DNA of 32,000 nucleotides from Candidatus Saccharimonadota bacterium (GCA_027925225.1 AP027131.1:420001-452000), one strand, 5' to 3'. Positions 2,150 through 28,855 are shown, numbered from the stretch's first letter. Numbers and translations are program-made. The notes: generated by a model from the letters alone, not told the origin.

Positions 2150-3789
<1,640 letters not shown>

Positions 3790-3802
<13 letters not shown>

Positions 3803-5553: not shown

Positions 5554-5632
5554 TTAATTATATTTGTTTTAATTTAATTTAATTTGTGATGTAATTAACT
5601 TATATAAAATAATTAAATTAAGGATATACAAA

Positions 5633-7456: not shown

Positions 7457-7485
7457 ATATTTTTTATTTAAATATAATTAATTTG

Positions 7486-7926
7486 ATGGAAAAACATAAA
7501 GAAAATGTAACTCTTTTTTACATGATTTATTTTTATTTAAAAAAGACATTTTGTTTTAAAAATTTAATACTAATCTTTGGTCTATTTTTATTATTTGTAC
7601 CTATATATTTTGTATTTAAAGAAATATTGGTTGATGTATTTGAAATTTCAGATAAGATTATATTATTTAATAAATGAACAGTAATTATAATTATGTTTAA
7701 CATATATATAAGTTTTATTTTAAATTACCTTTATTCATATTTAAAAAGAGCTGAAATTAATATTAACAGTCCTTATAAAAATACAATACCTAAAGTTATA
7801 ATAATTTACTCAATTTGATTTATTTTTTTATGATTCTTATGATTATATTTTATATTTCGACATCTGAATATAAATATAATGAAAATGGAACAAAAAGTGA
7901 TTCTTATAATAGAAATTTTGGTTTAA
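7486..7926 (+). CDS. Hypothetical membrane protein, probably the 5' part of a gene frameshifted at a T7 tract
   Basis: ATG 7486, frame 1, with TGA read as Trp. It has hydrophobic stretches (LILIFGLFLLFVPIYFVF, TVIIIMFNIYISFIL, VIIIYSIWFIF). After the T7 tract (7823-7829) the frame turns into implausible sequence and stops at TAA 7924-7926. Confidence 0.4.
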
Positions 7927-8192
7927 TTATATTTTCATCATTTTTTAGTTTTTTATTAATAAATATAGGTGGACTATTAATAAGCAAAAATAATTCTTTT
8001 ATTTATTTAATGTTTATATTCATTATAAATTGTTGTATTTTGTTTTGAAGTCTTGAAATAATGGCTACCCAAAAAAATGATGGAGAAACTTTTTTAAGAA
8101 TAGGTGAAATAGAGTTTTTATTATCAATAATATTTATTATTGCAAACTTAATAAAACGTTTTATTATATTTAAAAAACAGAAATCAAATTAA
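7815..8192 (+). CDS. Hypothetical membrane protein, probably the 3' part of the same frameshifted gene
   Basis: Frame 0 is open from 7794 (TTG 7815, ATG 7830) to TAA 8190-8192. It has hydrophobic segments FGLIIFSSFFSFLLINIGGLLI and FIYLMFIFIINCCILFW. Its upstream end is closed by TAA 7791-7793. Confidence 0.4.
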
Positions 8193-8195
8193 AAA

Positions 8196-9473
8196 TTAAC
8201 TAATTTTCCCTAAACTTGTAAACATATTTTTCTTATAAATTTCAACACCCGGCTGATCAAATGGATTTATTCTTAATAAATAACCAGAAATTGAAACAGA
8301 GATAAAAAAGAAAAATAATAAATATCCAAGTGTTTCTTCATTTCTTTCATTTATAAAAATTAAAAAATTAGGAATTTTTGCATTATTTGCATGTGATTCA
8401 ATTACAGAATTTAAAATAACTCTGTTTATTTCTGCAAAGGATTTTTTATTTAAATAATTTAATTTATCTAAATTTTCCACATCATTATTTAAAAATACTT
8501 TTTTATCTTCTAATAAAAATAAAGTTGTTTCAAAAAAAACTTTATTTCCATCTTGAATAAATTGACCAAGAGAATGAAGATCTCTCGAATAAGTAACAGA
8601 TGTGGGAAAAATTCCTTTATTATTTTTCCCTTCTGATTCAGCAAAAAGTTGTTTTAATCATTCTGAAAGCATCATAAAATCTGGATCATAAGTTGTGAAT
8701 ATTTCTAAAACTTTTTTTCTTTTACTAAAAAGCAAAAATCTTCCCAATGCATATTTATAGGCTAAATTATTTTTGATATCATTATTGCTAAATTCTTTTC
8801 TTGCTTTTTTTGTACCTTCTAGAAATTTTAAGATGTCAATTCCTGCAAAAGACATCGGAAATAATCCAACTGCTGTTAAGACAGAAAATCTCCCTCCTAT
8901 GTCATCTGGAATTGAAAATGTTTGATATCCTTTTATATCAGCTAGATTTTTTAAAATGCCTTTTTCTTTATCTGTAACCACAACAATTAAATCTTTTAAT
9001 TTTGTTTCACCAACTTTTTTTAAAAGCAGATTTTTAAAATATCTAAATGAAATTGCTGGTTCTAATGTTGTTCCAGATTTAGAAATTACACAAATTGCTC
9101 AATTTTTGTTTTTTAATTTATTTTCTAATTGTTTTATATAAGAGTCAGAAACATTTATTCCGGCAAAATAAATTTTTTCATCAATATTTAAACTACCTTT
9201 TAAAAAATCAATAGCTGCTTTTGATCCTAAATATGATCCTCCTATACCGATTACTAAAAGTGTATCAATTCCAAGATTTTTAATTTTTTTGACTTTTTCA
9301 TTTATTTCATTTACTTCATTTAAATTAAAATTATCAGGAAAATCAAGTCAGCCCAACATTTCATTACCAATGCCTTTTTTATTTCAAAGTGAATCATGCG
9401 CTTGCTCAATAAGATTTTTATTTTCAATTATTTCTTTTTCTAAATTTGAATCCTTTATTTTAAAATCAATCAT
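8196..9473 (-). CDS. pgi: Glucose-6-phosphate isomerase
   Basis: The minus-strand ORF runs from ATG (cat at 9471-9473, with GGAG 6-7 nt upstream) to TAA (8196-8198), 425 aa with TGA=Trp. Motifs: [39 protein letters not shown]. Track pieces 8196..8480 and 8658..8981 are in the same frame. Confidence 0.92.
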
Positions 9474-9636
9474 TAAAAACTCCTTTTTTTGAATAAAACT
9501 TAACTTATTTATACAATAAATATATAAATAAATCTAATGTAAAATAAATTATTTAAAGAATTAATTAATAAAGATTTAGATTTATAATTAGAAAAGATTA
9601 AATATTAATCTATAAACAGAAGGAATAAATTAAAAA

Positions 9637-11373
9637 ATGAAAATAATTAAAGGAATAAGTATATCTTCTGGTTTTTCCATTGGTAAATCTTTTTTATTAA
9701 AAGAAGAAAATATAAAAATAAAAGAAGAAAATACAAGAGATAGTAAAAATGAAATAAAAAAATTAAATAATGCAATTAAAGAAGCAAATTCACAGATTAT
9801 AAAAATTAAAAAAAATGTTGAAAAAAAACTTAATGAAGAAGAAGCAAAAATTTTTGATGCACACTTAGAAATTTTAAATGACCCTGAGCTTTTTGAAAAA
9901 ACAAAAGAAATAATTATAAATAATAATAAAAGTGCAAGTTTTGCTTTTAAAAAAGCAAGTGATGAAATTAAAAAAATTTTTGAAACAATAGATAATGAAT
10001 ATATGAGAGAAAGAGTTCTTGATATAACCGATGTTTCAAATCGTTTAATAAAAATATTAGAAGGAATTGAAATAAGAGATCTTTCTCTTATAAGTGAAGA
10101 AACAATAATTATAGCCCGCGATTTAACGCCTTCTGAAATTTCACAATTAGATTCTAGATTTGTAAAAGGTTTTGTCACAGAAATTGGAGGAACCACTTCA
10201 CATTCAGCAATTATTGCTCGAACTTTAGGAATTCCGGCAATTTCTGGAATTGGAAAAAATATCAATTTAATAAAAAATAATGAAAAAGTACTATTAAATG
10301 CAAAAGATGGAATTTTAATTTTAGATCCCCAGAAGGAAGAAATTGAAAATTTTGAAGCAAAAAAAAATAAATATGAAGAAATAAAAAAAGAAGAAGATAA
10401 ATTTATAAATATAAGTCCCACTACAAAAGATAATTGAAAAACAAAAATAGCTGTAAATATTGGAAATTTAGAAGATTTAAACAATTATAAAAAATTAAAT
10501 ATTGATGGTGTTGGTTTATTTCGTACAGAATTTTTATATATGAACTCAGATAAATGACCAACAGAAGAAGAACAATTTAATGTATATAAAAAAATCCTTG
10601 AAACAGTAAATATAAATAATGAAACAGTTGTTATTAGAACATTAGATATTGGAGGAGATAAAAAATTAAAATATTTTAATTTTCCAAAAGAAGAAAATCC
10701 TTTTTTAGGTTATCGTGCTATAAGATTAAGCTTAGACAAAAAGGATATTTTTATTACACAAATTCGTGCATTATTGCGTGCATCAAAATTTGGAAATCTT
10801 GCAATTAATCTTCCAATGATTGCAACAATCGATGAATTAAAAGAAGTCAAAAAAATAATAAAAAATACTGAAAATGAATTAATTAAAGAAGGACAAAAAA
10901 TAAATAAATATCAGATTGGTATGATGGTAGAAGTACCGTCAGTTGTTGAGCTTGCTGACAAATTTATAAAATATGTAGATTTTTTTTCAATTGGAACAAA
11001 TGATTTAATTCAATATACTTTTGCAGTAGATAGATTATCAGAAAAAGTTGCTTATTTATATCAACCTTTAAATCCTACAATTTTAAGAATGATTTATAAG
11101 ATAATCAAAACTTCTCATGAAAATAATAAGTGAACTGCAATTTGTGGTGAACTTGCAAGAGAAACAAAACTGATACCTATATTTATTGCTATGGGATTAG
11201 ATGAATTTTCTATGTCTGCTTCGTTTATCTTGAAAATACGTAGAATTTTTTCAAAAATTAGCAAAAAGGAAAGCGAAAAAATATTAGAACAAATTTTAGA
11301 TTCCGAAACAGAAAAAGAAGTAAGCAATTTAATTGATAAATTTTTTAAAGAAAATAATATTTCTTATTATTAA
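9637..11373 (+). CDS. ptsI: PTS Enzyme I (phosphoenolpyruvate-protein phosphotransferase)
   Basis: A frame-1 ORF of 578 aa that joins 9637..10437, 10774..11133 and 11191..11373 through TGA=Trp. It has the active-site His region [18 protein letters not shown], the PEP-binding region GTNDLIQY, and the catalytic Cys in [12 protein letters not shown]. Confidence 0.95.
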
Positions 11374-11397
11374 ATAATATATTCATAAAATATAAAT

Positions 11398-11806
11398 ATG
11401 TTTTGTATAAAATTAAAAAAATTTTCTATTTTTTTTCTTTTTTAAGAAGTGTTGGGAATCTTTATTTTAAAAATAAAGATTCTTTTAATTATCAAAATAA
11501 TCCTGAAGGTAATATATATATATATATATAAATCAAAATTTATTGAAAAAAATGGTAATGAATACACTTATGAAATAAAAGGATTAAATGATGAGACAAG
11601 TTATACATTTTATTCACTAGAAAATACAAAACTTTCAATAAACGATAGAACAAATCCAATTGATGAAGAAATAATATTAGAAGAAAATTTAGGAATTGAT
11701 TCATCCTTTTATTATTGGTATCTTTATTCTTATAAGAATTTTAAATAGAAATAAAAGAGAAAAAAGAATTTAATGAATTATTAAACGAAGATATAAAATC
11801 TAAATA
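11398..11806 (+). pseudogene. Decayed, internally deleted remnant of the arrayed surface-protein family
   Basis: ATG 11398 opens a signal-peptide-like frame that stops after 15 codons at T-rich tracts. The family N-terminus (GNLYFKNKDSFNY) sits in another frame, abutting a (TA)9 tract. That tract joins directly to the last family module (KSKFIEKNGNEYTYEIKGLNDETSYTFYSLENTKLSIN...). A further out-of-frame deletion removes the FLIFKTEKTKIP..TM segment. The family 3' end ...gaagatataaaatctaaataa is retained at 11786-11806. Confidence 0.65.
11512..11530 (+). repeat. (AT)9A dinucleotide tract at the deletion junction of the remnant copy
   Basis: Direct read: gaaggtaatatatatatatatatataaatcaaa. The homologous site in intact copies reads gaaggtaatacatataaatcaaa (e.g. 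15185-15207). Confidence 0.9.
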
Positions 11807-11880
11807 AATTCTTAATCTTATTAAAGATACAAAAAACAATAATTATAACAAAAAAATAAAAAATATTATATAATTTATTT

Positions 11881-13680
11881 ATGATAAGATTAAAGAATTT
11901 ATATTTTTTGTTTTCTTTTTTTATAATTTTTACTTTTTTTTGAGGTAGCGGTAATCTTTATTTTAAAAATAAAGATTCTTTTAATTATGAAAATAATTCT
12001 TCTTTACAAGATGTTAATGATTTAAATAATCCTTATATTGAAAAAAATGGTTTTGAAATAAACAGCTGAGAGGCAGAAACTTCCTCTGTAATTTTTACTT
12101 TAACTATTGTAGGTGATTGAATAGTTAAACCTATAAATGTTTCACTTTATAATGATGAAGAATTAATTTCTGTAACCGCAAACAATATAAGCTCTCATGT
12201 TATTGATACAGATAATAATGAAGTAGAATATGGATATAGAATACAAGGATTAGATATTGCCAATAGCAATGAATACACTTTTTATTCTTTAGATAATACA
12301 AATTTAGCAATAGAAGATAATGGCGATTCTATTGATGATCAAATTTTGCTTAGCGAAGAATTGAATGTTACAAATGAACTTACATTTAGTTTAAGTACTA
12401 CTAATAATGCTTATACTAGTGATAATAATAGTAGTGGTAAAGGAGAAGTAGGAATATTTAGAACTTCTAATAAAGATGTTGTTTTTAGCATTTTAATATC
12501 AGACAATTGAGCTGTTCAAGACAGTTTACGTCTTATTTTGCGGCGTAATTTAAATGGAGTTGTTTCTAAGTTTAATGTTAATGCTAATTTATTATATGAA
12601 GAAGATTTAGAGGGTGAATTTACTAGATTTTATTATGTTATTACTGATAATACTAGTCATATAGTAGCAGGCACAAGTTATAAATTTTTTGTTGATACAA
12701 TTTATGCATCAGCTTGTCTAGCATTAGGAGAATCTACTAATGTAGTAAAAGATATTGCAGTTGACAATAATTCTTTTTCCTTTGAAAATCCTTACATAGT
12801 GGAAAATAGCTTTGAAATTTTAAATGATTCAACTGATTATTCAATAAAATTTCAAATAGGTTTAATAAATAATCAACATAAAGATTTTGACACTTCTTCA
12901 CCATTAAATGTGACACTAAAAGATATAGAAGGAAATAATTATTCAACAACTGCAAATTATGTAAGCGTGGGTTCAGAAAGTAATACTTATATTTATGAAA
13001 TAACAGAACTTGAAAATAATAAACCTTTAAATATTAGCACTAATTATTCTATTTTTTCAATAGATAATGAATGACTTGCTGTTGGAAGTAATATAAATGA
13101 TATTGATAATGAAATTTTAATAGAAGATGATTTGGGCGCAGAAGGGAATTTTACAACTGCTAATGCTTATATTATAGAAAATGGTTTTAAAATTGTTGAA
13201 TATAATGATACATCTGTAAAATATGCAATAACTGTAGAAGGGTGAGAAAATGATTATAAAAATTATGAAAATGAAATTGATGTAAGATTAATTTCTGAAG
13301 ATAATTCCGAAGGTGAAATATATCAATCAAAATTTATTGAAAAAAATGGTAATGAATACACTTATGAAATAACAGGATTAAATGAGGAGACAAGTTATAC
13401 ATTTTATTCACTAGAAAATACAAAACTTTCAATAAATGATAAAGCAACGCCAATCGATGAAGAAATAATCTTAGAAGAAGATTTAGGAATTTATTCATCC
13501 TTCTTAATATTTAAAACAGAGAAAACAAAAATCCCAAGTTATGTTTGAATAATATTAGCAATAATAATTATGTTAATAATTATTATTGGTATCTTTATTC
13601 TTATAAGAATTTTAAATAGAAATAAAAGAGAGAGAGAAGAGTTTAATGAATTATTAAACGAAGATATAAAATCTAAATAA
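11881..13680 (+). CDS. Arrayed surface protein, copy A (intact, 599 aa): signal peptide, 4 modules, C-terminal TM anchor
   Basis: Frame 1 from ATG 11881 to TAA 13678-13680, with only TGA (Trp) internal stops. N-terminus MIRLKNLYFLFSFFIIFTFFWGSG has no Cys lipobox. C-terminus is ...FKTEKTKIPSYVW-IILAIIIMLIIIIGIFILIRIL-NRNKREREEFNELLNEDIKSK. It contains track ORF 12538..13074. Confidence 0.85.
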
Positions 13681-13753
13681 CTTCTTAATCTTATTAAAGA
13701 TACAAAAAATGATCATTATAACAAAAAAATAAAAAATATTATATAATTTATTT

Positions 13754-15555
13754 GTGATAAGATTAAAAAATTTATATTTTTTGTTTTCTTTTTTTATAAT
13801 TTTTACTTTTTTTTGAGGTGGCAATAATCTTTATTTTAAAAATAAAGATTCTTTTAATTATGAAAATAATTCTTCTTTACAAGATGTTAATGATTTAAAT
13901 AATCCTTATATTGAAAAAAATGGTTTTGAAATAAACAGCTGAGAGGCAGAAACTTACTCTGTAATTTTTACTTTAACTATTGTAGGTGATTGAACAATTG
14001 AACCTATAAATGTTTCACTTTATAATGATGAAGAATTAATTTCTGTAACTGCAAGCAATATAAGCTCTCATGTTATTGATACAGATAATAATGAAGTAGA
14101 ATATGGATATAGAATAGAAGGATTAGATATTACTAATAGCAATGAATACACTTTTTATTCTTTAGATAATACAAATTTAGCAATAGAAGATAATGGTGAT
14201 GCTATTGATGATCAAATTTTGCTTAGCGAAGAATTGAATGTTACAAATGAACTTACATTTAGTTTAAGCACTACTAATAATGCTTATATTAGTGATAATG
14301 GTAATGGTCAAGCAGAAATAGAAATATTAAGAACTTCTCTAGTCAATATGTTGTTTTTAGTCTTTTAATATCAGACAACTGAGCTGTTCAAGATAAATTA
14401 TATCTTCATATAAGTCGCGTTAAGTCTCAAACTTCCTCTGCTTTTAGTATATACAGTTATTTTTTATTTGAGGAAGATTTAGAGGGCGAATTTAATAAAT
14501 TTTATTATTTTATTGATGCTAATGATGCTAGTGCAATGGTTGCAGGTAAAAGTTATACTTATCATTTTAAAGAAATTTATTCAATTTCTTACTTAGCATT
14601 AGAATCTAATAGAGCAATAAAAACTATTCCAATAGGAGGTAATAGTTTTTATTTTGAAAGTCCTTACATAGTAGAAAATAATTTTGAAATTTTAAATGAT
14701 TTAACTGATTATTCAATAAAATTTCAAATAAGTGTAGTAAATAATGATTCTGGAGATTTTGATCCTTCTTCACCATTAAATGTGACACTAAAAGATATAG
14801 AAGGAAATAATTATTCAACAACTGCAAATTATGTAAGTGCGGGTTCAGAAAGTAATACTTATATTTATGAAATAACAGAACTTGAAAATAATAAACCTTT
14901 AAATGTTAGCACTAATTATTCTATTTTTTCAATAGATAATGAATGACTTGCTGTTGGAAGTAATATAAATCCAATTGATTTAGAAATCTTAATTACTGAT
15001 CAATTAAATGGTGATGGAAATTTTAAAACTGCTAATGCTTATATTTTAGAAGAAGGTTTTAAAATTGTTGAATATAATGATACATCTGTAAAATATACAA
15101 TAACTGTAGAAGGATGAGAAAATGATTATAAAAATTATGAAGAAAATGAAATTTATGCAAAATTAATTTCTGAAGATAATGCTGAAGGTAATACATATAA
15201 ATCAAAGTTTATTGAAAAAAATGGTAATGAATACACTTATGAAATAACAGGATTAAATGATGAGACAAGTTATACATTTTATTCACTAGAAAATACAAAT
15301 CTTTCAATAAATGATAAAGCAGCACCAGTTGATGAAGAAATAATATTAACAGAAGATTTAGGAATTGATTCATCCTTCTTAATATTTAAAACAGAGAAAA
15401 CCAAAATTCCAAATTATGTTTGAATAATATTAGCAATAATAATTATGTTGATAATTATTATTGGTATCTTTATTCTTATAAGAATTTTAAACAGAAATAA
15501 AAGAGAAAGAGAAGAGTTTAATGAATTATTAAACGAAGATATAAAATCTAAATAA
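13754..15555 (+). pseudogene. Arrayed surface protein, copy B, disrupted by a net +2 frameshift near 14339-14347
   Basis: GTG 13754 (frame 2) reads normally until acttct|ctagtcaatatgttg, where other copies have acttct|aataaagatgttg. It then stops at TAA 14366-14368. The homologous reading continues in frame 1 (open from 14305; first ATG 14536 = track ORF 14536..14946) to TAA 15553-15555. The footprint is 1802 nt against 1800 in intact copies. Confidence 0.75.
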
Positions 15556-15576
15556 AGAATGTTATATAATTTATTT

Positions 15577-17376
15577 ATGATAAGATTAAAAAATTTATAT
15601 TTTTTGTTTTCTTTTTTTATAATTTTTACTTTTTTTTGAGGTAGCAGTAATCTTTATTTTAAAAATAAAGATTCTTTTAATTATGAAAATAATTCTTCTT
15701 TACAAGATGTTAATGATTTAAATAATCCTTATATTGAAAAAAATGGTTTTGAAATAAAAAGTTGAGAAGCAGAAACTTCCTCTGTAATTTTTACTTTAAC
15801 TATTGTAGGTGATTGAATAGTTAAACCTATAAATGTTTCACTTTATAATGATGAAGAATTAATTTCTGTAACTGCAAGCAATATAAGCTCTCATGTTATT
15901 GATACAGACAATAATGAAGTAGAATATGGATATAGAATACAAGGATTAGATATTACTAATAGCAATGAATACACTTTTTATTCTTTAGATAATACAAATT
16001 TAGCAATAGAAGATAATGGTGATTCTATTGATGATCAAATTTTACTTAGCGAAGAATTGAATGTTACAAATGAACTTACATTTGATTTAAGTACTACTAA
16101 TAATGCTTATACCAGTGATAGTGCTAATAACGGTCAAGGAGAAGTAAAAATATTAATAACTTCTAATAAAAATGTTGTTTTTAGCATTTTAATATCAGAC
16201 AACTGAGCCGTTCAAGACAAATTATATATTAATATTCAGCGTAATTGAACTGGAAGTGTTCTTAGGTTTAATGTTTATGCTAATTTATTATATGAAGAAG
16301 ATTTAGAGGGTGAATTTACTAATTTTTATTATGTTATTACTGATAATAATAATAATATAGTACCAGGTACATATTATAGTTATAAGGTTCATTATGTTTA
16401 TTCGCCAGCTTATCTAGCATTAAGAGAATCTAGTAATGTAGTAAAAGATATTGTAATAGACACTAATACTTTTTACTTTGAAAGTCCTTACATAGTGGAA
16501 AATAGCTTTGAAATTTTAAATGATTCAACTGATTATTCAATAAAATTTCAAATAGGTTTAATAAATAATCGCCATAAAGATTTTGATCCTTCTAAATCCT
16601 TAAATGTAACATTAAAAGATATAGAAGGAAATAATTATTCAACAACTGCAAATTATGTAAGTGCGGGTTCAGAAAGTAATACTTATATTTATGAAATAAC
16701 AGAACTTGAAAATAATAAACCTTTAAATGTTAGCACTAATTATTCTATTTTTTCAATAGATAATGAATGACTTGCTGTTGGAAGTAATATAAATGATATT
16801 GATAATGAAATTTTATTAGAAGATGATTTGGGAGCAGAAGGTAGTTTTACAACTGCTAATGCTTATATTTTAGAAGAAGGTTTTAAAATTATTGAGTATA
16901 ATGATACATCTGTAAAATATACAATAACTGTAGAAGGATGAGAAAATGATTATAAAAATTATGAAAATGAAATTGATGTAAGATTGATTTCTGAAGATAA
17001 TTCTGAAGGTGATATATATCAATCAAAATTTATTGAAAAAAATGGTAATGAATACACTTATGAAATAACAGGATTAAACGATGAGACAAGTTATACATTT
17101 TATTCACTAGAAAATACAAAACTTTCAATAAATGATAAAGCAACGCCAATTGATGAAGAAATAATATTAACAGAAGATTTAGGAATTGATTCATCTTTCT
17201 TAATATTTAAAACAGAGAAAACCAAAATTCCAAATTATGTTTGAATAATATTAGCAATAATAATTATGTTAATAATTATTATTGGCATAATTATTCTTAT
17301 AAGAATTTTAAATAGAAATAAAAGAGAAAAAAGAGAGTTTAATGAATTATTAAACGAAGATATAAAATCTAAATAA
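15577..17376 (+). CDS. Arrayed surface protein, copy C (intact, 599 aa)
   Basis: Frame 1 from ATG 15577 to TAA 17374-17376. It includes track ORFs 16495..16770 and 16984..17244, joined by TGA=Trp. The architecture matches copy A, with a unique central cassette. Confidence 0.85.
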
Positions 17377-17450
17377 CTTCTTAATTTTATTAAAGATATA
17401 GAAAAACAATAATTATAACAAAATAATAAAAAATATTATATAATTTAGTT

Positions 17451-19226
17451 ATGATAAGATTAAAAAATTTATATTTTTTGTTTTCTTTTTTTATAATTTT
17501 TACTTTTTTTTGAGGTAGCAGTAATCTTTATTTTAAAAATAAAGATTCTTTTAATTATGAAAATAATTCTTCTTTACAAGATGTTAATGATTTAAATAAT
17601 CCTTATATTGAAAAAAATGGTTTTGAAATAAACAGCTGAGAGGCAGAAACTTACTCTGTAATTTTTACTTTAACTATTGTAGGTGATTGAACAGTTGAAC
17701 CTATAAATGTTTCACTTTATAATGATGAAGAATTAATTTCTGTAACTGCAAGCAATATAAGCTCTCATGTTATTGATACAGATAATAATGAAGTAGAATA
17801 TGGATATAGAATAGAAGGATTAGATATTACTAATAGCAATGAATACACTTTTTATTCTTTAGATAATACAAATTTAGCAATAGAAGATAATGATGATGTT
17901 ATTGATGATCAAATTTTACTTAGCGAAGAATTGAATGTTACAAATGAACTTACATTTGATTTAAGCACTACTAATAATGCTTATACTAGTGATAATAATA
18001 GTAGCGGCAAAGGAGAAATAGAAGTATTAAGGACTTCTAATAAAGATGTTGTTTTTAGTGTTTTAATATCAGACAATTGAGCTGTTCAAGACAGTTTATA
18101 TCTTCATATTGAGCGTCATTGAAGTGGAAGTGTTTCTAGATTTAGTGTTTATGCTAATTTATTATATGAAGAAGATATAGGGGGTGAATTTACTAAATTT
18201 TATTATGTTATTCATGATACTTCTGGAGCAATAGAACCAGGTACATATTATAATTATAGAATTGAGTATATTTATTCAACAGCTCATCTAGCATTAGGAG
18301 GATCTACTAATGTAGCACAAAATATTACAATAGACACTAATATTTTTTACTATAACAGTCCTTATATAGTAAATAATAGTTTTGAAATTTTAAATGATTC
18401 AACTGATTATTCAATAGAATTTCAAATAGGTTTAATAAATAATAGCCATGCAGATTTTGACGCTTCTTCACCATTAAATGTGACACTAAAAGATATAGAA
18501 GGAAATAATTATTCAACAACTGCAAATTATGTAAGCACGGGTTCAGAAAGTAATACTTATATTTATGAAATAACAGAACTTGAAAATAATAAACCTTTAA
18601 ATGTTAGCACTAATTATTCTATTTTTTCAATAGATAATGAATGACTTGCTGTTGGAAGTAATATAAATGATATTGATAATGAAATTTTAATAGAAGATGA
18701 TTTGGGCGCAGAAGGGAATTTTACAACTGCTAATGCTTATATTATAGAAAATGGTTTTAAAATTGTTGAATATAATGATACATCTGTAAAATATGCAATA
18801 ACTGTAGAAGGGTGAGAAAATGATTATAAAAATTATGAAAATGAAATTGATGTAAGATTAATTTCTGAAGATAATTCCGAAGGTGATATATATCAATCAA
18901 AATTTATTGAAAAAAATGGTAATGAATACACTTATGAAATAACAGGATTAAACGATGAGACAAGTTATACATTTTATTCACTAGAAAATACAAAACTTTC
19001 AATAAATGATAAAGCAACGCCAATTGATGAAGAAATAATATTAACAGAAGATTTAGGAATTGATTCATCCTTCTTAATATTTAAAACAGAGAAAACCAAA
19101 ATTCCAAGTTATGTTTGAATAATATTAGCAATAATAATTATGTTAATAATTATTATTGGCATAATTATTCTTATAAGAATTTTAAATAGAAATAAAAGAG
19201 AAAAAGAGAGTTTAATGAATTATTAA
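17451..19226 (+). CDS. Arrayed surface protein, copy D (591 aa; cytoplasmic tail altered by an A6->A5 frameshift)
   Basis: Frame 0 from ATG 17451. All modules and the TM helix are intact. The poly-A run is A5 at 19201-19205, against A6 in copies C, E, F and G. This shifts the tail to ...NRNKREKESLMNY, stopping at TAA 19224-19226 instead of the family stop at 19247-19249. Confidence 0.75.
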
Positions 19227-19270
19227 ACGAAGATATAAAATCTAAATAAAGGATATTATATAATTTATTT

Positions 19271-21070
19271 ATGGTAAAATTAAAAAATTTATATTTTTTG
19301 TTTTCTTTTTTTATAATTTTTACTTTTTTTTGAGGTAGCGGTAATCTTTATTTTAAAAATAAAGATTCTTTTAATTATGAAAATAATTCTTCTTTACAAG
19401 ATGTTAATGATTTAAATAATCCTTATATTGAAAAAAATGGTTTTGAAATAAACAGCTGAGAGGCAGAAACTTCCTCTGTAATTTTTACTTTAACTATTGT
19501 AGGTGATTGAATAGTTAAACCTATAAATGTTTCACTTTATAATGATGAAGAATTAATTTCTGTAACCGCAAACAATATAAGCTCTCATGTTATTGATACA
19601 GATAATAATGAAGTAGAATATGGATATAGAATACAAGGATTAGATATTGCCAATAGCAATGAATACACTTTTTATTCTTTAGATAATACAAATTTAGCAA
19701 TAGAAGATAATGGCGATTCTATTGATGATCAAATTTTGCTTAGCGAAGAATTGAATGTTACAAATGAACTTACATTTAGTTTAAGTACTACTAATAATGC
19801 TTATACTAGTGATAATAATAGTAGTGGTAAAGGAGAAGTAGGAATATTTAGAACTTCTAATAAAGATGTTGTTTTTAGCATTTTAATATCAGACAATTGA
19901 GCTGTTCAAGACAGTTTACGTCTTATTTTGCGGCGTAATTTAAATGGAGTTGTTTCTAAGTTTAATGTTAATGCTAATTTATTATATGAAGAAGATTTAG
20001 AGGGTGAATTTACTAGATTTTATTATGTTATTACTGATAATACTAGTCATATAGTAGCAGGCACAAGTTATAAATTTTTTGTTGATACAATTTATGCATC
20101 AGCTTGTCTAGCATTAGGAGAATCTACTAATGTAGTAAAAGATATTGCAGTTGACAATAATTCTTTTTCCTTTGAAAATCCTTACATAGTGGAAAATAGC
20201 TTTGAAATTTTAAATGATTCAACTGATTATTCAATAAAATTTCAAATAGGTTTAATAAATAATCAACATAAAGATTTTGACACTTCTTCACCATTAAATG
20301 TGACACTAAAAGATATAGAAGGAAATAATTATTCAACAACTGCAAATTATGTAAGCGTGGGTTCAGAAAGTAATACTTATATTTATGAAATAACAGAACT
20401 TGAAAATAATAAACCTTTAAATATTAGCACTAATTATTCTATTTTTTCAATAGATAATGAATGACTTGCTGTTGGAAGTAATATAAATGATATTGATAAT
20501 GAAATTTTAATAGAAGATGATTTGGGAGCAGAAGGGAATTTTACAACTGCTAATGCTTATATTTTAGAAGAAGGTTTTAAAATTGTTGAGTATAATGATA
20601 CATCTGTAAAATATACAATAACTGTAGAAGGATGAGAAAATGATTATAAAAATTATGAAAATGAAATTGATGTAAGATTAATTTCTGAAGATAATTCCGA
20701 AGGTGAAATATATCAATCAAAATTTATTGAAAAAAATGGTAATGAATACACTTATGAAATAACAGGATTAAATGAGGAGACAAGTTATACATTTTATTCA
20801 CTAGAAAATACAAAACTTTCAATAAATGATAAAGCAACGCCAATCGATGAAGAAATAATATTAACAGAAGATTTAGGAATTGATTCATCCTTCTTAATAT
20901 TTAAAACAGAGAAAACCAAAATTCCAAGTTATGTTTGAATAATATTAGCAATAATAATTATGTTAATAATTATTATTGGCATAATTATTCTTATAAGAAT
21001 TTTAAATAGAAATAAAAGAGAAAAAAGAGAGTTTAATGAATTATTAAACGAAGATATAAAATCTAAATAA
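19271..21070 (+). CDS. Arrayed surface protein, copy E (intact, 599 aa)
   Basis: Frame 2 from ATG 19271 to TAA 21068-21070. It contains track ORF 19928..20464, whose protein is identical to 12538..13074 of copy A. Confidence 0.85.
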
Positions 21071-21091
21071 AGGATATTATATAATTTATTT

Positions 21092-22895
21092 ATGGTAAAA
21101 TTAAAAAATTTATATTTTTTGTTTTCTTTTTTTATAATTTTTACTTTTTTTTGAGGTAGCGGTAATCTTTATTTTAAAAATAAAGATTCTTTTAATTATG
21201 AAAATAATTCTTCTTTACAAGATGTTAATGATTTAAATAATCCTTATATTGAAAAAAATGGTTTTGAAATAAACAGCTGAGAGGCAGAAACTTACTCTGT
21301 AATTTTTACTTTAACTATTGTAGGTGATTGAACAGTTGAACCTATAAATGTTTCACTTTATAATGATGAAGAATTAATTTCTGTAACCGCAAGCAATATA
21401 AGCTCTCATATTATTGATACAGATAATAATGAAGTAGAATATGGATATAGAATAGAAGGATTAGATATTACTAATAGCAATGAATACACTTTTTATTCTT
21501 TAGATAATACAAATTTAGCAATAGAAGATAATGGTGATGTTATTGATGATCAAATTTTACTTAGCGAAGAATTGAATGTTACAAATGAACTTACATTTGA
21601 TTTAAGTACTAATAATAATGCTTATACCAGCGATAATAATAGTAGCGGTAAAGGAGAAATAGGAATATTTAGAACTTCTAATAAAGATGTTGTTTTTAGT
21701 ATTTTGATATCAGACAACTGAGCCGTTCAAGACAATTTACATCTTATTTTGCGGCGTAATTTAAATGGAAATATTTTTACGTTTAGTGTTTATGTTAATT
21801 TATTATATGAAGAAGATTTAGAGGGTGAATTTACTAAATTTTATTATGTTATTAATGATGGTGATAGCAATTCAATAGAACCAGGTACAAATTATAAATT
21901 TTTTGTTGATACAATTTACTCATCAGCTTATCTAGCATTAGGAGAATCTACTAATGTAGTAAAATCTATTGCAATTGACAATAATTCTTTTTCCTTTGTG
22001 AGTCCTTACATAGTGGAAAATAGTTTTGAAATTTTAAATGATTCAACTGATTATTCAATAAAATTTCAAATAGGTTTAGTAAATGATCAAAATGGAGATT
22101 TTGATACTTCTTCACCATTAAATGTGACACTAAAAGATATAGAAGGAAATAATTATTCAACAACTGCAAATTATGTAAGCACGGGTTCAGAAAGTAATAC
22201 TTATATTTATGAAATAACAGAACTTGAAAATAATAAACCTTTAAATGTTAGCACTAATTATTCTATTTTTTCAATAGATAATGAATGACTTGCTGTTGGA
22301 AGTAATATAAATGATATTGATAATGAAATTTTAATAGAAGATGATTTGGGCGCAGAAGGGAATTTTACAACTGCTAATGCTTATATTATAGAAAATGGTT
22401 TTAAAATTGTTGAATATAATGATACATCTGTAAAATATGCAATAACTGTAGAAGGGTGAGAAAATGATTATAAAAATTATGAAAATGAAATTGATGTAAG
22501 ATTAATTTCTGAAGATAATTCCGAAGGTGATATATATCAATCAAAATTTATTGAAAAAAATGGTAATGAATACACTTATGAAATAACAGAGATTAAACGA
22601 TGAGACAAGTTATACATTTTATTCACTAGAAAATACAAAACTTTCAATAAATGATAAAGCAACGCCAATTGATGAAGAAATAATATTAACAGAAGATTTA
22701 GGAATTGATTCATCCTTCTTAATATTTAAAACAGAGAAAACCAAAATTCCAAGTTATGTTTGAATAATATTAGCAATAATAATTATGTTAATAATTATTA
22801 TTGGCATAATTATTCTTATAAGAATTTTAAATAGAAATAAAAGAGAAAAAAGAGAGTTTAATGAATTATTAAACGAAGATATAAAATCTAAATAA
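21092..22895 (+). pseudogene. Arrayed surface protein, copy F, +1 frameshift at ~22589; predicted product lacks the membrane anchor
   Basis: Frame 2 from ATG 21092 (contains track ORF 21749..22288). At 22586-22594 it reads acagagatt where all other copies read acaggatt. The frame then runs ...YEITEIKRWDKLYILFTRKYKTFNKW and stops at TAA 22655-22657. The homologous frame (0) continues to the family stop at 22893-22895. Confidence 0.75.
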
Positions 22896-22916
22896 AGAAT
22901 GTTATATAATTTATTT

Positions 22917-24716
22917 GTGATAAGATTAAAAAATTTATATTTTTTGTTTTCTTTTTTTATAATTTTTACTTTTTTTTGAGGTGGCAATAATCTTTATTTT
23001 AAAAATAAAGATTCTTTTAATTATGAAAATAATTCTTCTTTACAAGATGTTAATGATTTAAATAATCCTTATATTGAAAAAAATGGTTTTGAAATAAACA
23101 GCTGAGAGGCAGAAACTTACTCTGTAATTTTTACTTTAACTATTGTAGGTGATTGAACAGTTGAACCTATAAATGTTTCACTTTATAATGATGAAGAATT
23201 AATTTCTGTAACTGCAAGTCATATAAGCTCTCATATTATTGATACAGATAATAATGAAGTAGAACATGGATATAGAATAGAAGGATTAGATATTACTAAT
23301 AGCAATGAATACACTTTTTATTCCTTAAATAATACAAATTTAGCAATAGAAGATAATGGCGATGCTCTTGATGATCAAATTTTAATTAGTGAAGAATTGG
23401 ATGTTACAAATGAACTTACATTTGATTTAAGTACTACTAATAATGCTTATGCAAGCGATAATAATAGTAGTGGCAAAGGAGAAATAGTAGTATTTAGAAC
23501 TTCTAATAAAGATGTTGTTTTTAGTGTTTTAATATCAGACAATTGAACTGTTCAAGACAGTTTATATCTTCATATTCAGAAGAATTGACCTGGAACTTTT
23601 ACTAAGTTTAGTGTTAATGCTAATTTATTATATGAAGAAGATATAGGGGGTGAATTTACTAGATTTTATTATGTTATTCCTGATATTTATGGTGCAATAG
23701 AACCAGGTACATATTATAGTTATAGAATTGATTATATTTATTCAACGGCTCGTCTAGCATTAGGAGGACCTACTAATGTAGTAAAAAATATTACAATAGA
23801 CACTAATGTTTTTTACTTTGACAGTCCTTACATAGTGGAAAATAGTTTTGAAATTTTAAATGATTCAACTGATTATTCAATAAAATTTCAAATAGGTTTA
23901 ATAAATAATAGACATAAAGATTTTGATACTTCTTCACCATTAAATGTGACACTAAAAGATATAGAAGGAAATAATTATTCAACAACTGCAAATTATGTAA
24001 GCACGGGTTCAGAAAGTAATACTTATATTTATGAAATAACAGAACTTGAAAATAATAAACCTTTAAATGTTAGCACTAATTATTCTATTTTTTCAATAGA
24101 TAATGAATGACTTGCTGTTGGAAGTAATATAAATGATATTGATAATGAAATTTTAATAGAAGATGATTTGGGCGCAGAAGGGAATTTTACAACTGCTAAT
24201 GCTTATATTATAGAAAATGGTTTTAAAATTGTCGAATATAATGATACATCTGTAAAATATGCAATAACTGTAGAAGGGTGAGAAAATGATTATAAAAATT
24301 ATGAAAATGAAATTGATGTAAGATTAATTTCTGAAGATAATTCCGAAGGCGATATATATCAATCAAAATTTATTGAAAAAAATGGTAATGAATACACTTA
24401 TGAAATAACAGGATTAAACGATGAGACAAGTTATACATTTTATTCACTAGAAAATACAAAACTTTCAATAAATGATAAAGCAACGCCAATTGATGAAGAA
24501 ATAATATTAACAGAAGATTTAGGAATTGATTCATCCTTCTTAATATTTAAAACAGAGAAAACCAAAATTCCAAGTTATGTTTGAATAATATTAGCAATAA
24601 TAATTATGTTAATAATTATTATTGGCATAATTATTCTTATAAGAATTTTAAATAGAAATAAAAGAGAAAAAAGAGAGTTTAATGAATTATTAAATGAAGA
24701 TATAAAATCTAAATAA
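22917..24716 (+). CDS. Arrayed surface protein, copy G (intact, 599 aa, GTG start)
   Basis: Frame 0 from GTG 22917 to TAA 24714-24716. It contains track ORF 23835..24110. Only TGA codons interrupt it. Confidence 0.8.
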
Positions 24717-24878
24717 AGAAAATAATAAAAGTAAAAAAGTGTTTTATAAATTTAATTTTATTAATAAAAATTAGTAATAATTGTCTTCTAAAAAAAGAAA
24801 AGTATTAAAATTAATTTGGGTTAAAATTAGGATTTTATTTTTAAAATTCTATGTTCCCTTATTTATTTTTATTTTTTT

Positions 24879-25406
24879 ATGAAAATTATGAAAAAAAAAG
24901 AAAAAGATATTCTTGTTTACTCACCAGCAGATGGGAAAATTGTAGATATTAAAAAAGTTCCTGATGAAACTTTTTCACAAGAAATGATAGGAAAGGGTAT
25001 TGCAATAAAAATAAATTCTCCTTATATTTATTCACCAATAAAAGGAAAAGTAGAAGCCGCTTTTAGAACAGGTCATGCTTATGGTATTAAAACTAAATAT
25101 GGACCTTCAATACTATTACATATAGGCGTTGATACTGTCGCTTTAAATGGCGAAGGTTTTCTAAGGTTAATCATGCAAGGAGAAAAAGTAAAACCAAAAA
25201 GTAAATTAGCAAGAGTTAATTGAGAAATACTCAAAAAAGCAAAATCTTCAGAAACATTAGTAATTGCAACTAATGATTCAATGGAGGGCTACGAAATAGA
25301 AATGGTTGCTAAAATTGGCCAAAAAGTAACAAAAGATGATGTTCTCTTCAAAATAATAGAAAAAAAAGAAAAAGATAAAAAAGAGGAAAAAAAAGATGGA
25401 AATTAA
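24879..25406 (+). CDS. crr: PTS glucose-family EIIA component
   Basis: Frame 0 from ATG 24879 (alternative ATG 24888) through TGA 25221 (Trp) to TAA 25404-25406. EIIA-Glc motifs: VPDETFSQEMIGKGIAI, the two-His site FRTGHAYGI and LLHIGVDTVALNGEGF. Confidence 0.88.
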
Positions 25407-25662
25407 AGTAAAAATAACTGATCCAATAGGATTACATGCAAGACCTGCAACTATATTAGTAAAAGAAGCAAGTAAATATAAATCAGATATAAAATTAAAA
25501 ACTTTAAATGGCAAAGAAGTTAATTTAAAATCAATATTATCAATTATGAGTTTAAGTATTAAAAAAGATGATGAAATAATAATTACTGCAAAAGGCAGTG
25601 ATGAAAAAACAGCAATTGAAAATATTGAAAAAGTTATGAAAGAAGAAAAACTAATTTCTTAG
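25396..25662 (+). CDS. ptsH: Phosphocarrier protein HPr
   Basis: An 88-aa ORF with agagga upstream. His-15 region GLHARPAT and regulatory Ser-46 region NLKSILSIMSL are present. It overlaps crr by 11 nt. Confidence 0.93.
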   Translation: MEIKVKITDPIGLHARPATILVKEASKYKSDIKLKTLNGKEVNLKSILSIMSLSIKKDDEIIITAKGSDEKTAIENIEKVMKEEKLIS

Positions 25663-25694
25663 AAATTAGTTTTTTAAATAAAGGCGTGATTATT

Positions 25695-26558
25695 ATGTTA
25701 GAAAATGTAGAAAAAGTAATACAAAAAGCTAAAAAAGGGAAATATGCAATACCACAATTCAATATAAATGATTCTACATCAGCTAAATTTATACTTGAAG
25801 TGTGCGAAGAAAAAAAAGCTCCAGTAATTTTAGGTTGTTCAGAAGGCGCATTAAAATATATGGGCGGACCAACGGTTGCAGTAAATCTTGTAAAAGGATT
25901 AATTAAAGATTTAAATATTACTATTCCTGTAATTTTACATCTTGACCATGGTCAATCAATTGCAAGCTGTAAAAAAGCAATTGATGCTGGTTTTACATCT
26001 GTAATGTATGATGGTTCAACATTACCAATTGAACAAAATGTAAAAAATACAATTGAAGTTGTAGAATATGCAAGAAAACATAATGCTACTGTAGAAGCAG
26101 AAGTGGGAACGGTAGGCGGAACAGAAGATGGAATTACAGGAGGAGTAAGATATGCTTCTCTTGATGAATGTATAAAAATGTCAAAAACAGGAATTTCAAT
26201 GCTTGCTGCTTCTCTTGGTTCAGTACATGGTTTTTATCATGGTGAACCTAAACTTGGTTTTACAGAAATGGAAACTTATGCAAAAGAAACTAATTTACCA
26301 TTAGTTCTTCATGGTGGTTCAGGAATTCCTGACGATCAAATAAAAAGAGCAATTATGTCAGGTGAAGCAAAAATAAATATAAATACTGAAATTCAAAATG
26401 CTTTTAATCAAGGAATAGCAAAATATTATAAAGAAAAACTTAATTTAAATGAAACTGGTTATATGCTTAAAAATATAACAGGAAAATATGCAATTCCTTT
26501 TGCAAAAGCAATAGTAGCAGAAAAAATTGAGTTATTTGGAAATTATAATAAAGCTTAA
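25695..26558 (+). CDS. fba: Class II fructose-1,6-bisphosphate aldolase
   Basis: ATG 25695, with aagg 10 nt upstream; the track starts at the in-frame GTG 25686. Motifs: YAIPQFNIN, LHLDHG, VMYDGS, EAEVGTVGG, LVLHGGSG. Confidence 0.92.
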   Translation: MLENVEKVIQKAKKGKYAIPQFNINDSTSAKFILEVCEEKKAPVILGCSEGALKYMGGPTVAVNLVKGLIKDLNITIPVILHLDHGQSIASCKKAIDAGFTSVMYDGSTLPIEQNVKNTIEVVEYARKHNATVEAEVGTVGGTEDGITGGVRYASLDECIKMSKTGISMLAASLGSVHGFYHGEPKLGFTEMETYAKETNLPLVLHGGSGIPDDQIKRAIMSGEAKININTEIQNAFNQGIAKYYKEKLNLNETGYMLKNITGKYAIPFAKAIVAEKIELFGNYNKA

Positions 26559-26581
26559 TTTAATAATAGGAGAAATTTAAA

Positions 26582-27871
<1,290 letters not shown>

Positions 27872-27881
27872 AAATAGTAAG

Positions 27882-28853
27882 ATGATAAAAAAAATTGCAA
27901 TTTTAACTTCTGGTGGGGATGCACCAGGGATGAACACGGTTATTAAAGCAGCAGTAAATGTTGCTTTAAATGAAAATCTTGAAACCTTTGTTGTAAAAGA
28001 AGGTTACTTAGGACTTTATAACAATAAAATTGAAAAAGTATCAAAAGAAGATGTAAAAGATATTGATGTAAAATCAGGAACTTTCATTTTTACAAAAAGG
28101 TTTCCAGAATTTGATAATGATAAAAATAGACAACAAGCAGTAGACAATTTAAATTCAAGAGGAATAGATGCATTAATAGTTATAGGTGGCGATGGTTCTT
28201 TTAGAGGAGCAAATAAGCTCTCACAAATGGGTATAAAAACAATAGGAATTCCAGGGACAATTGATGGAGATATAGCATTTAATGATCTTACTGTTGGATA
28301 TTTAACGGCTTTAGATACAATTGTAGAATCAATAGATAAAGTAAAAGATACAATAACTTCTCATGGAAGAATTGCAGTAATTGAAGTAATGGGAAAGGGT
28401 TGTGGTTTACTTGCACTTTCAGCTGCAATTGCTAATGATATTGATGTTCTTTCTATTCCAGAAAAAAAAATATCTGAAGATGAAATTATTTCCAAAGTAG
28501 AAAAAGTATTAAAAAATGGACAAAATCAAGTTACAGTTCTTGTAACTGAATTAATGTATGATGTAAATAAATTGGCAAAAAAAATTGAAGAAAAAACCAA
28601 AAAAGTAACAAGAGCAACAATTTTAGGTCATACACAACGTGGTGGAAAGCCCGTTCCTTTCGAAAGAATAAATGCTTACAAATTGGGTTCTTTTGCAGTA
28701 TCAGAATTATTAAAAGGAAAAACAGGAATAACAGTAAGTGTTTTAAATAATAAATTAATATCAACACCTTTTGAAAAAACAGTGAATAATAAATTAAAAA
28801 TTTCAGAAGATCTTTTTAATACTTATAAATTAATGAAAGGAAATAAAAATTAA
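27882..28853 (+). CDS. pfkA: ATP-dependent 6-phosphofructokinase
   Basis: A 323-aa ORF. Motifs: ILTSGGDAPGMN, VIGGDGS, IPGTIDGD, LGHTQRGG. Confidence 0.93.
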   Translation: MIKKIAILTSGGDAPGMNTVIKAAVNVALNENLETFVVKEGYLGLYNNKIEKVSKEDVKDIDVKSGTFIFTKRFPEFDNDKNRQQAVDNLNSRGIDALIVIGGDGSFRGANKLSQMGIKTIGIPGTIDGDIAFNDLTVGYLTALDTIVESIDKVKDTITSHGRIAVIEVMGKGCGLLALSAAIANDIDVLSIPEKKISEDEIISKVEKVLKNGQNQVTVLVTELMYDVNKLAKKIEEKTKKVTRATILGHTQRGGKPVPFERINAYKLGSFAVSELLKGKTGITVSVLNNKLISTPFEKTVNNKLKISEDLFNTYKLMKGNKN

Positions 28854-28855
28854 AA

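Follow-up and report, generated by a model that had tools for sequence, protein, structure and literature searches.

A mosaic head-to-tail array of genes for putative adhesin-like, C-terminally anchored proteins in the woodlouse symbiont Candidatus Hepatoplasma vulgare

Vsp, Vlp, Vsa, Vpma, VlhA, Mpl and MBA are clustered variable surface lipoproteins of wall-less bacteria, and recombination between paralogues adds to the diversity of these families. In the systems built on M. synoviae vlhA, M. genitalium MgPar and Borrelia vlsE, one expressed gene is accompanied by promoterless partial cassettes. Here we describe a chromosomal locus of Candidatus Hepatoplasma vulgare, a gut symbiont of woodlice, at which seven paralogous genes for proteins of a different design stand head-to-tail. 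The locus occupies positions 11881-24716 of the stretch of 32,000 nucleotides (nt) that was analysed, referred to below as the window. An initial annotation had proposed that it is a candidate antigenic-variation or adhesin system unlike anything described in the Mollicutes; the claims of antigenic variation and of novelty are only partly borne out.

Two described families are closer in design. The ScARPs of Spiroplasma citri, an arthropod mollicute, comprise eight paralogues with 35-83% identity, which are not lipoproteins and are held by a C-terminal transmembrane (TM) anchor (PMC3485318). Their repeat domain is surface-exposed and mediates adhesion to, and entry into, insect cells, as has been shown experimentally for ScARP3d (PMC3485318). 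The phytoplasma proteins Vmp1, VmpA and VmpB have a signal sequence, tandem repeats and a C-terminal TM segment; they vary between strains and are thought to interact with the insect vector (PMC4392738). Nearer in phylogeny, the genomes of Hepatoplasmataceae contain large open reading frames (ORFs) made of repetitive beta-sandwich units, which lie in tandem clusters, have mainly same-genome paralogues as relatives and have been proposed to be putative adhesins (Kawato et al. 2024, PMC10928387). There are 3-4 such giant ORFs per genome, with units that are Ig-like or form a novel beta-sandwich; those of H. vulgare could not be modelled (PMC10928387). On balance the array is best read as a recently amplified, gene-converting, probably co-expressed, adhesin-like repertoire, with attachment to, or coating against, the hepatopancreas epithelium of the host as its most likely function.

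Gene layout and protein architecture

The window has a GC content of about 22% and must be read with genetic code 4, in which TGA encodes Trp. ORF calling with table 11 was misleading and was set aside: it breaks the region into short ORFs, where code 4 gives long genes throughout. Each copy has 7-8 Trp positions, at least some of them TGA, and for this reason the copies are invisible to table-11 ORF callers. Under code 4 the array resolves into seven plus-strand paralogues of 1.8 kb, here called copies A to G (Table 1), which bear the tags HPAVJP_3650-3710; copy A is 100% identical to the annotated hypothetical protein HPAVJP_3650. Pairwise nucleotide identity between copies is 89-99%. The spacers measure, in order along the array, 73, 21, 74, 21, 21 and 21 nt, and the short type (given by AGAATGTTATATAATTTATTT directly 5' of copy C) equals the final ~17 nt of the long type. 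The initial annotation had reported seven units in one orientation with these spacers, four of them intact (A, C, E and G), one with a frameshift in its tail (D) and two frameshifted (B and F). Code-4 ORF calling reproduces this layout and the state of each copy was confirmed; the observation is real and its description accurate.

The damage differs in kind between the three frameshifted copies. The ORF of copy D stops at 19226, a change that alters only the final ~14 residues on the cytoplasmic side and leaves the ectodomain and TM helix intact. Copy F is truncated at 22657, ahead of the end of its fourth module and of the TM helix, and copy B, the most divergent of the seven, is split in the public annotation into 204 aa and 339 aa (P0005). 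A degenerate eighth copy sits between ptsI and copy A and is followed by a long-type spacer of its own. It retains unit nt 37-117, 1438-1631 and 1700-1800, the rest being internally deleted, and an (AT)9 tract at 11512-11529 lies exactly at the junction of the large internal deletion; publicly it is annotated as a 98-aa ORF (P0018).

The N-terminus of the encoded proteins, MIRLKNLYFLFSFFIIFTFFWGSG, is free of Cys and has a signal-peptide-like layout of MIRLK, then LYFLFSFFIIFTFFW, then GSG. The sole Cys in any copy is C279 of copies A and E, so that none occurs in the first 278 residues of any copy. Residues 548-582 form the only segment above the TM hydropathy threshold and are followed by the basic stretch RILNRNKRE..., while AlphaFold2 places helices at residues 2-19 and 553-598. 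Hydropathy, the Cys scan and AlphaFold2 agree on the non-lipoprotein design first suggested for these proteins: a signal peptide, an ectodomain, a C-terminal TM helix and a charged tail.

Self-comparison reveals four homologous modules of ~125 aa in each protein. A hidden Markov model (HMM) of the module detects modules 1, 3 and 4 in every array copy, with module lengths of ~105-125 aa; module 2 of the array has diverged below HMM detection, and that of a counterpart from another species (P0013) is still recognised. A full-length AlphaFold2 model, built from a 19-sequence family alignment, consists of four all-beta domains, with a predicted local distance difference test score (pLDDT) of 80-94 for modules 1, 3 and 4. 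Modelled singly from 54 aligned modules, the module reaches a pLDDT of 90.3 and a predicted template modelling score (pTM) of 0.83. Foldseek matches the four-domain model to tandem FN3/Ig-like domains, among them a large bacterial adhesion protein's extender (6xi3, E=1.6e-8), the FN3 tandems of contactin, tenascin and titin, and the adhesin FdeC (4e9l). The adhesin-like reading of the initial annotation finds support at the level of the predicted fold, as four tandem, apparently Ig/FN3-like beta-sandwiches. The sequence profile touches FN3 domains weakly (E~0.02); a full copy has no Pfam domain at E<=1 except TM noise and does not reach the fn3 gathering threshold. Single-module Foldseek searches of PDB and BFVD give generic beta-sandwich matches only, and as modelled the module is a divergent Ig/FN3-like sandwich that lacks a close solved relative.

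The family is narrowly distributed. As the initial annotation had stated, no curated family matches: a full copy finds nothing, or TM-helix noise, in NCBIfam, PDB sequences, PHROG and PADLOC, in line with the Pfam result. An exhaustive phmmer search of 1.84 billion representatives returned 16 proteins, all of them built from the module of the array. These are the window copies, other H. vulgare paralogues and singletons from the Logan assemblies ERR14127475 and SRR24015491, and all 16 have a signal peptide, 2-9 modules, a C-terminal TM helix and a basic tail. Members in other assemblies are dispersed or loosely clustered and vary in module number, with no near-identical array among them; contig scans of GTDB representative genomes and JGI metagenomes yielded no relatives. 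Because the relatives are few, exclusively hepatoplasma-like and nowhere arrayed, the array is thus taken to be a recent lineage-specific amplification within a family that appears confined to hepatoplasma-like mollicutes.

A hypervariable module and exchange between copies

Variation between the copies is concentrated in module 2. Across unit nt 541-1020 nucleotide diversity stands at 0.12-0.29, whereas most of the unit shows 0.00-0.08. When the seven copies are compared, module 2 varies at 85 of its 132 positions, with at least three states at 37 of these, and is invariant at 47; the corresponding counts of variable positions are 20/131 in module 1, 26/125 in module 3 and 15/111 in module 4, and the signal peptide has 5/49 and the TM helix with the tail 4/51. 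The invariant framework of module 2 includes VVFS.LISDNW.VQD, EEDLEGEF..FYY.I and LAL. Along the predicted strands the variable residues are often interleaved with conserved hydrophobic ones, a pattern that would be expected of a folded domain with a varying surface.

The ratio of non-synonymous to synonymous rates (dN/dS, or omega) was estimated pairwise by the Nei-Gojobori method under code 4. For most pairs of intact copies it is 1.3-2.0 in module 2, compared with 0.2-0.6 in the remainder of the same genes, and dS is similar in both. In the comparison of copies A and C, module 2 has a ratio of non-synonymous to synonymous differences (Nd:Sd) of 62:8 and the flanks one of 26:28 (Fisher p=9e-7). 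Since mean omega exceeds 1 despite a strictly conserved core, the excess seems to go beyond mere relaxation, and omega well above 1 at the variable sites would be implied. Positive selection on module 2 is likely, though short of proven.

The copies are mosaics of one another. Copies A and E are identical over 1246 nt that include all of module 2, and then diverge, with 10 differences in the last 200 nt; there the 3' end of E is identical to D and F and matches G too. Copies D and F are identical over 486 nt downstream of module 2, yet show 80 differences within it, and copies B and G share their first 243 nt. Distance matrices calculated segment by segment along the unit are mutually incongruent. 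In a Sawyer-type permutation of polymorphic sites, the sum of squared concordant-run lengths (SSCF) was 89,639 against 20,383 +/- 1,309 in the permuted data (p<=0.001), many of the pairs taken singly reaching p<=0.0005, and the Hudson-Kaplan minimum number of recombination events (Rm) is 40. Incongruent segment distances, long identical tracts and the Sawyer-type test together bear out the segmental exchange between copies that had been proposed at the outset.

An assembly from another sample contains part of the same locus. The short-read contig k141_1187 (ENA ERZ27229184, here L003; 1104 bp) is 98.4% identical to window positions 16634-17736, the junction of copies C and D: it runs from the 3' part of one copy through an identical 74-nt spacer into the 5' part of the following copy. 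The recurrence of this junction in an independent assembly indicates that the tandem arrangement is not peculiar to one assembly. At 96 of 99 variable positions L003 carries an allele of some window copy, in a combination that is new with respect to the window, and three alleles are private to it. Judged from the sequence, this mosaic may reflect either strain-level reshuffling or a chimeric short-read assembly.

Expression signals, proposed function and alternatives

Every unit has a start codon of its own and a TATAAT that ends 7 nt 5' of it, to which the long spacers add ATAACA at the -35 distance. A terminator scan of 11300-25000 found no intrinsic terminator, spacer RNA folds no better than shuffled controls, and an Rfam scan of the window gave nothing. 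The initial annotation had also stated that no recombinase, invertible element or simple-sequence-repeat (SSR) switch is recognisable in the window, and this holds. No recombinase occurs among the flanking ORFs of the window, and no homopolymer of at least 9 nt or meaningful SSR was found in or before the array genes. Invertible elements were considered and rejected, as every inverted repeat is an AT-rich quasi-palindromic stretch of TM-coding sequence that recurs in each copy. Nothing found at the locus thus points to a dedicated switch.

A T8 run is present in the signal-peptide codons ACT TTT TTT TGA, at 11934-11941 in copy A and at the matching site of every copy, and the TGA right after it is the first Trp position of each copy. 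As a slippage switch this tract was rejected as unremarkable; A/T runs of at least 8 are rarer inside the array (0.6/kb) than outside it (2.1/kb).

Because each copy has a start and a TATAAT, and neither terminators nor switches were found, the intact copies are most likely co-expressed as a repertoire and not one at a time; co-transcription, independent transcription of all intact copies, or both, would be the simplest expectation. The term antigenic variation, by which the locus was first described, implies switching, and fits poorly with 4-5 complete genes that each have their own start and TATAAT and are separated by no terminators.

A scheme that accommodates these features may be outlined as follows. 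The non-lipoprotein signal peptide would export the protein, and the C-terminal helix and basic cytoplasmic tail would anchor it in type-I fashion. On the cell surface the four Ig/FN3-like modules could form a short stalk, with modules 1, 3 and 4 as a conserved scaffold and module 2 as the diversified and presumably ligand-contacting part. Unequal crossing-over would create and erode copies; the internally deleted eighth copy, the existence of two spacer types and the frameshifts of B and F point to this. Gene conversion between neighbours would shuffle segments, homogenising the scaffold and redistributing variants of module 2, in which selection would favour amino-acid changes. In this way the paralogue repertoire might broaden or update the specificity of binding or recognition. 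Relatives of the array bacterium live outside the host cells, lining the hepatopancreatic brush border of isopods (PMC10928387). As ScARP3d and the Vmps, which are of like design, are respectively demonstrated and proposed adhesins, attachment or coating is the best guess as to function.

Hepatoplasmas line the digestive gland of woodlice as dominant, so far uncultured, symbionts, and the array supplies candidates for their attachment and persistence. It offers a family-specific, confidently modelled module and a defined hypervariable domain for binding tests, and the copy number and mosaic pattern of the locus can be tracked between hosts and strains. To our knowledge, the isopod host has no antibody-based adaptive immunity, which raises the question of what drives selection on the array.

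Several observations weigh against the adhesin-like reading. The model of module 2 is weak (pLDDT 53-64), a single module has no close structural relative (Foldseek against PDB, best E=0.011, TM<=0.4), and the label 'adhesin' is derived from fold class and architecture; if the signal peptide is uncleaved, the protein would be anchored at both ends. Omega above 1 in module 2 is marginal when single pairs are set against neutrality (binomial p=0.03-0.2), and strongly relaxed constraint around a conserved core is a possible, if less likely, alternative to selection. The PHI recombination test gave no significant result (p=0.32); incompatibility, already present in ~47% of neighbouring pairs of informative sites, has probably reached saturation, which leaves the test no power. 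The genome is a metagenome assembly from the pill bug Armadillidium vulgare, made with Flye from Oxford Nanopore Technologies (ONT) reads and polished with Medaka and POLCA (PMC10928387). The frameshifts could be ONT errors, especially that of D, which falls in a homopolymer; the indels of B and F lie outside homopolymers. Finally, the mosaic seen between samples in L003 could be a product of chimeric assembly.

A more far-reaching version is that the array is a diversity-generating surface system, in which frequent conversion among tandem, complete genes keeps re-assorting a positively selected module 2 on a constant FN3-like stalk; this is possible, though clearly less probable than the adhesin-like repertoire. 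If true, changing combinations of proteins in each cell or lineage would face hypervariable host recognition molecules or phages. The locus would then be an analogue of antigenic variation that operates without lipoproteins, a dedicated recombinase, SSRs or a single expression site, in a host free of antibodies.

Alternatively, the proteins may be caught up in an arms race with phages or competitors, as abundant surface structures that serve mollicute phages as receptors or are targets of host lectins or antimicrobial factors, with the repertoire serving for escape or as decoys and adhesion being secondary or absent. Hepatoplasmataceae retain CRISPR-Cas9, which implies pressure from mobile elements (PMC10928387), diversification is confined to one presumably exposed module, and family members outside the array adjoin defence genes (HPAVJP_3560, followed by a methylase, an ORF and GmrSD; and a member in L004, a hepatoplasma-like assembly, followed by GmrSD and Fic). 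The array itself, however, stands among glycolysis and phosphotransferase-system (PTS) genes outside any defence island, PHROG and PADLOC give no matches, and viral structural matches are of the generic beta-sandwich kind. We know of no Hepatoplasma phage, and regard an arms race as an unlikely main explanation.

Classical antigenic or phase variation, with one expressed copy and the others (B and F included) acting as donor cassettes through gene conversion, is more doubtful still. It draws on the tandem same-strand paralogues with pseudogenes among them, on the clear segmental conversion, on the hypervariable, predicted exposed module with its excess of non-synonymous change, and on the fact that the long spacer with its -35-like ATAACA occurs only at A, B and D, so that promoter strength could differ. 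Against it stand the full-length copies with their own start and TATAAT, the lack of a single expression site and of promoterless truncated cassettes at the locus, the failure to find an SSR, inversion site or recombinase, the scarcity of long A/T runs inside the array and a host that is not known to have antibody-based adaptive immunity.

The least probable account, that the array is a neutral by-product in which a decaying amplification has relaxed module 2 and part of the mosaic stems from assembly or polishing of near-identical repeats, can point to the damage in 2-3 of 8 units and the extensive deletion of one, to the ONT-based assembly, to single-pair omegas in module 2 that mostly do not significantly exceed 1 and to omega of ~1 in module 2 between pseudogene B and the others, but sits poorly with the purifying selection on the flanks, with the strictly invariant module-2 positions alongside those of three or more states, with a mean omega that would imply values well above 1 at variable sites, with the like dS of module 2 and flanks, with the same junction and allele pool in an independent Illumina-type assembly, and with the retention of a module-2-type domain in P0013.

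Surroundings and comparison with known systems

The array is placed between ptsI and crr (EIIA-Glc), among housekeeping genes at 8196-11373 and 24879-30271: upstream are pgi (minus strand) and ptsI, and downstream, on the plus strand, crr, fba, eno, pfkA and pyk. It splits PTS and glycolysis genes that would otherwise be neighbours. An origin in a prophage or defence island was considered and rejected in view of these flanks.

Distant paralogues lie near the start of the window. HPAVJP_3560 and HPAVJP_3550 (P0009, just upstream of the window) form a tandem pair, 73% identical overall and nearly identical over the C-terminal ~200 residues and in the last module, the TM helix and the tail. HPAVJP_3550 has a signal peptide and HPAVJP_3560 has none; the latter is possibly 5'-truncated or mis-started. 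Directly downstream of HPAVJP_3560 is a restriction/defence island (2150-7456; Table 1). In L004, too, the genes after the family member encode a GmrSD_N protein and a Fic protein. Between GmrSD and pgi, at 7435-8192, are two overlapping, very hydrophobic ORFs of 163 and 125 aa, with TTG starts and in different frames; they could represent a single small membrane protein with a frameshift, or be spurious.

A counterpart with three modules, P0013 (L001, Logan ERR14127475, 1963 bp), comes from a related species and has retained a domain of the module-2 type ('SNWAIQD'). Its gene seems to stand alone, with an AT-rich hairpin and then an unrelated gene after it; only ~150 nt of the contig precede it, so that an upstream neighbour is possible.

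Table 1. Positions in the window of the array units, their variable modules and other features
Feature	Position	Strand	Remarks
Copy A (HPAVJP_3650)	11881-13680	+	intact, 599 aa
Long spacer, 73 nt	13681-13753	+	ATAACA-18 nt-TATAAT; same type 5' of A (11810-11880) and D (17377-17450)
Copy B	13754-15555	+	1802 nt; GTG start; +2 ('TC') near 14356; four in-frame 3-nt indels
Copy C (HPAVJP_3680)	15577-17376	+	intact; other in-frame ATG at 15559
Copy D (HPAVJP_3690)	17451-19249	+	-1 (A) in an A6 run near 19221
Copy E	19271-21070	+	intact
Copy F (HPAVJP_3710)	21092-22895	+	+1 (A) near 22610
Copy G	22917-24716	+	intact, last in array; GTG start or in-frame ATG at 22899
Degenerate eighth copy	11422-11809	+	~390 nt; blastn of 11374-11880 against unit A
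Hypervariable module 2, copy A	12421-12900	+	unit nt 541-1020, codons 181-340
Module-2 equivalent, copy B	14294-14775	+	approximate
Module-2 equivalent, copy C	16117-16596	+	approximate
Module-2 equivalent, copy D	17991-18470	+	approximate
Module-2 equivalent, copy E	19811-20290	+	approximate
Module-2 equivalent, copy F	21632-22114	+	approximate
Module-2 equivalent, copy G	23457-23936	+	approximate
3' part of HPAVJP_3560 (P0008, 723 aa)	1-2084	+	distant paralogue: 5 modules, C-terminal TM helix, basic tail
Fused DNA methylase	2150-3802		N6_N4_Mtase and D12/Dam-class domains
587-aa ORF overlapping the methylase	3790-5553		no family or PDB match; possibly an endonuclease
GmrSD-type enzyme	5633-7456		

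Set beside the systems described at the outset, the array is not a member of the variable lipoproteins, of the sarpin or Vmp families, or of the cassette systems. With the variable lipoproteins of Mollicutes it shares a clustered multigene organisation and recombination between paralogues; those proteins, however, have a lipobox Cys and a switch based on promoter SSRs, site-specific inversion or a single expression site, and the array shows neither lipobox nor switch. The cassette systems likewise produce mosaic variants of an exposed protein by segmental conversion among homologous copies, some of them pseudogenes, whereas the units of the array are mostly complete (A, C, E, G and effectively D) and each can be started separately. 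Stalk adhesins built of FN3 or Ig domains, such as 6xi3 and FdeC, project a binding region from the surface on a string of beta-sandwiches. Their likeness to the array proteins is one of fold class, at 8-15% identity, and what attaches them to the cell is an outer membrane, a cell wall or type I secretion in place of a C-terminal TM helix.

The claim that the array resembles nothing described in Mollicutes proved too strong, since ScARPs (PMC3485318) and phytoplasma Vmps (PMC4392738) share the design of signal peptide, repeats and C-terminal TM segment. Like ScARPs/SARP1, the array is a multigene family of an arthropod mollicute whose products have an N-terminal signal peptide, predicted extracellular repeats and a C-terminal TM anchor. 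The sarpin domain, however, consists of 6-8 repeats of 39-42 aa, in contrast to beta-sandwich modules of ~125 aa; ScARP genes are plasmid-borne and dispersed, whereas the array is chromosomal and head-to-tail, and a single hypervariable module has not been described for ScARPs. Similarity to ScARPs was not detected by Pfam or by the exhaustive search, which did not include a direct pairwise comparison with a ScARP sequence. Vmps share the signal sequence, tandem repeats and C-terminal TM segment but belong to another group of organisms, which uses the standard genetic code, and have other repeat units and no near-identical array of seven copies. The exhaustive search found no sequence relation to Vmps, a judgement that is indirect, no Vmp having been compared directly.

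The array falls within the loosely circumscribed group of repetitive beta-sandwich ORFs noted by Kawato et al. (PMC10928387), with which it shares repetitive beta-sandwich units, clustered paralogues and similarity largely restricted to Hepatoplasmataceae. The text of that paper gives no locus tags, so that the likeness to its giant H. vulgare ORFs is one of description; neither 'HPAVJP' nor 'transmembrane' appears in it. The HPAVJP_3650-3710 array, its mosaicism and its hypervariable module are absent from that account, and the array module, unlike the H. vulgare units of the paper, could be modelled (pLDDT 90). For the architecture of the proteins there is precedent in ScARPs and Vmps. By analogy, the array appears to work like a paralogous adhesin family that undergoes concerted evolution and carries one diversifying domain. 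It would extend surface variation in the Mollicutes beyond lipoprotein switches to a C-terminally anchored, multi-copy family shaped by conversion and diversifying selection.

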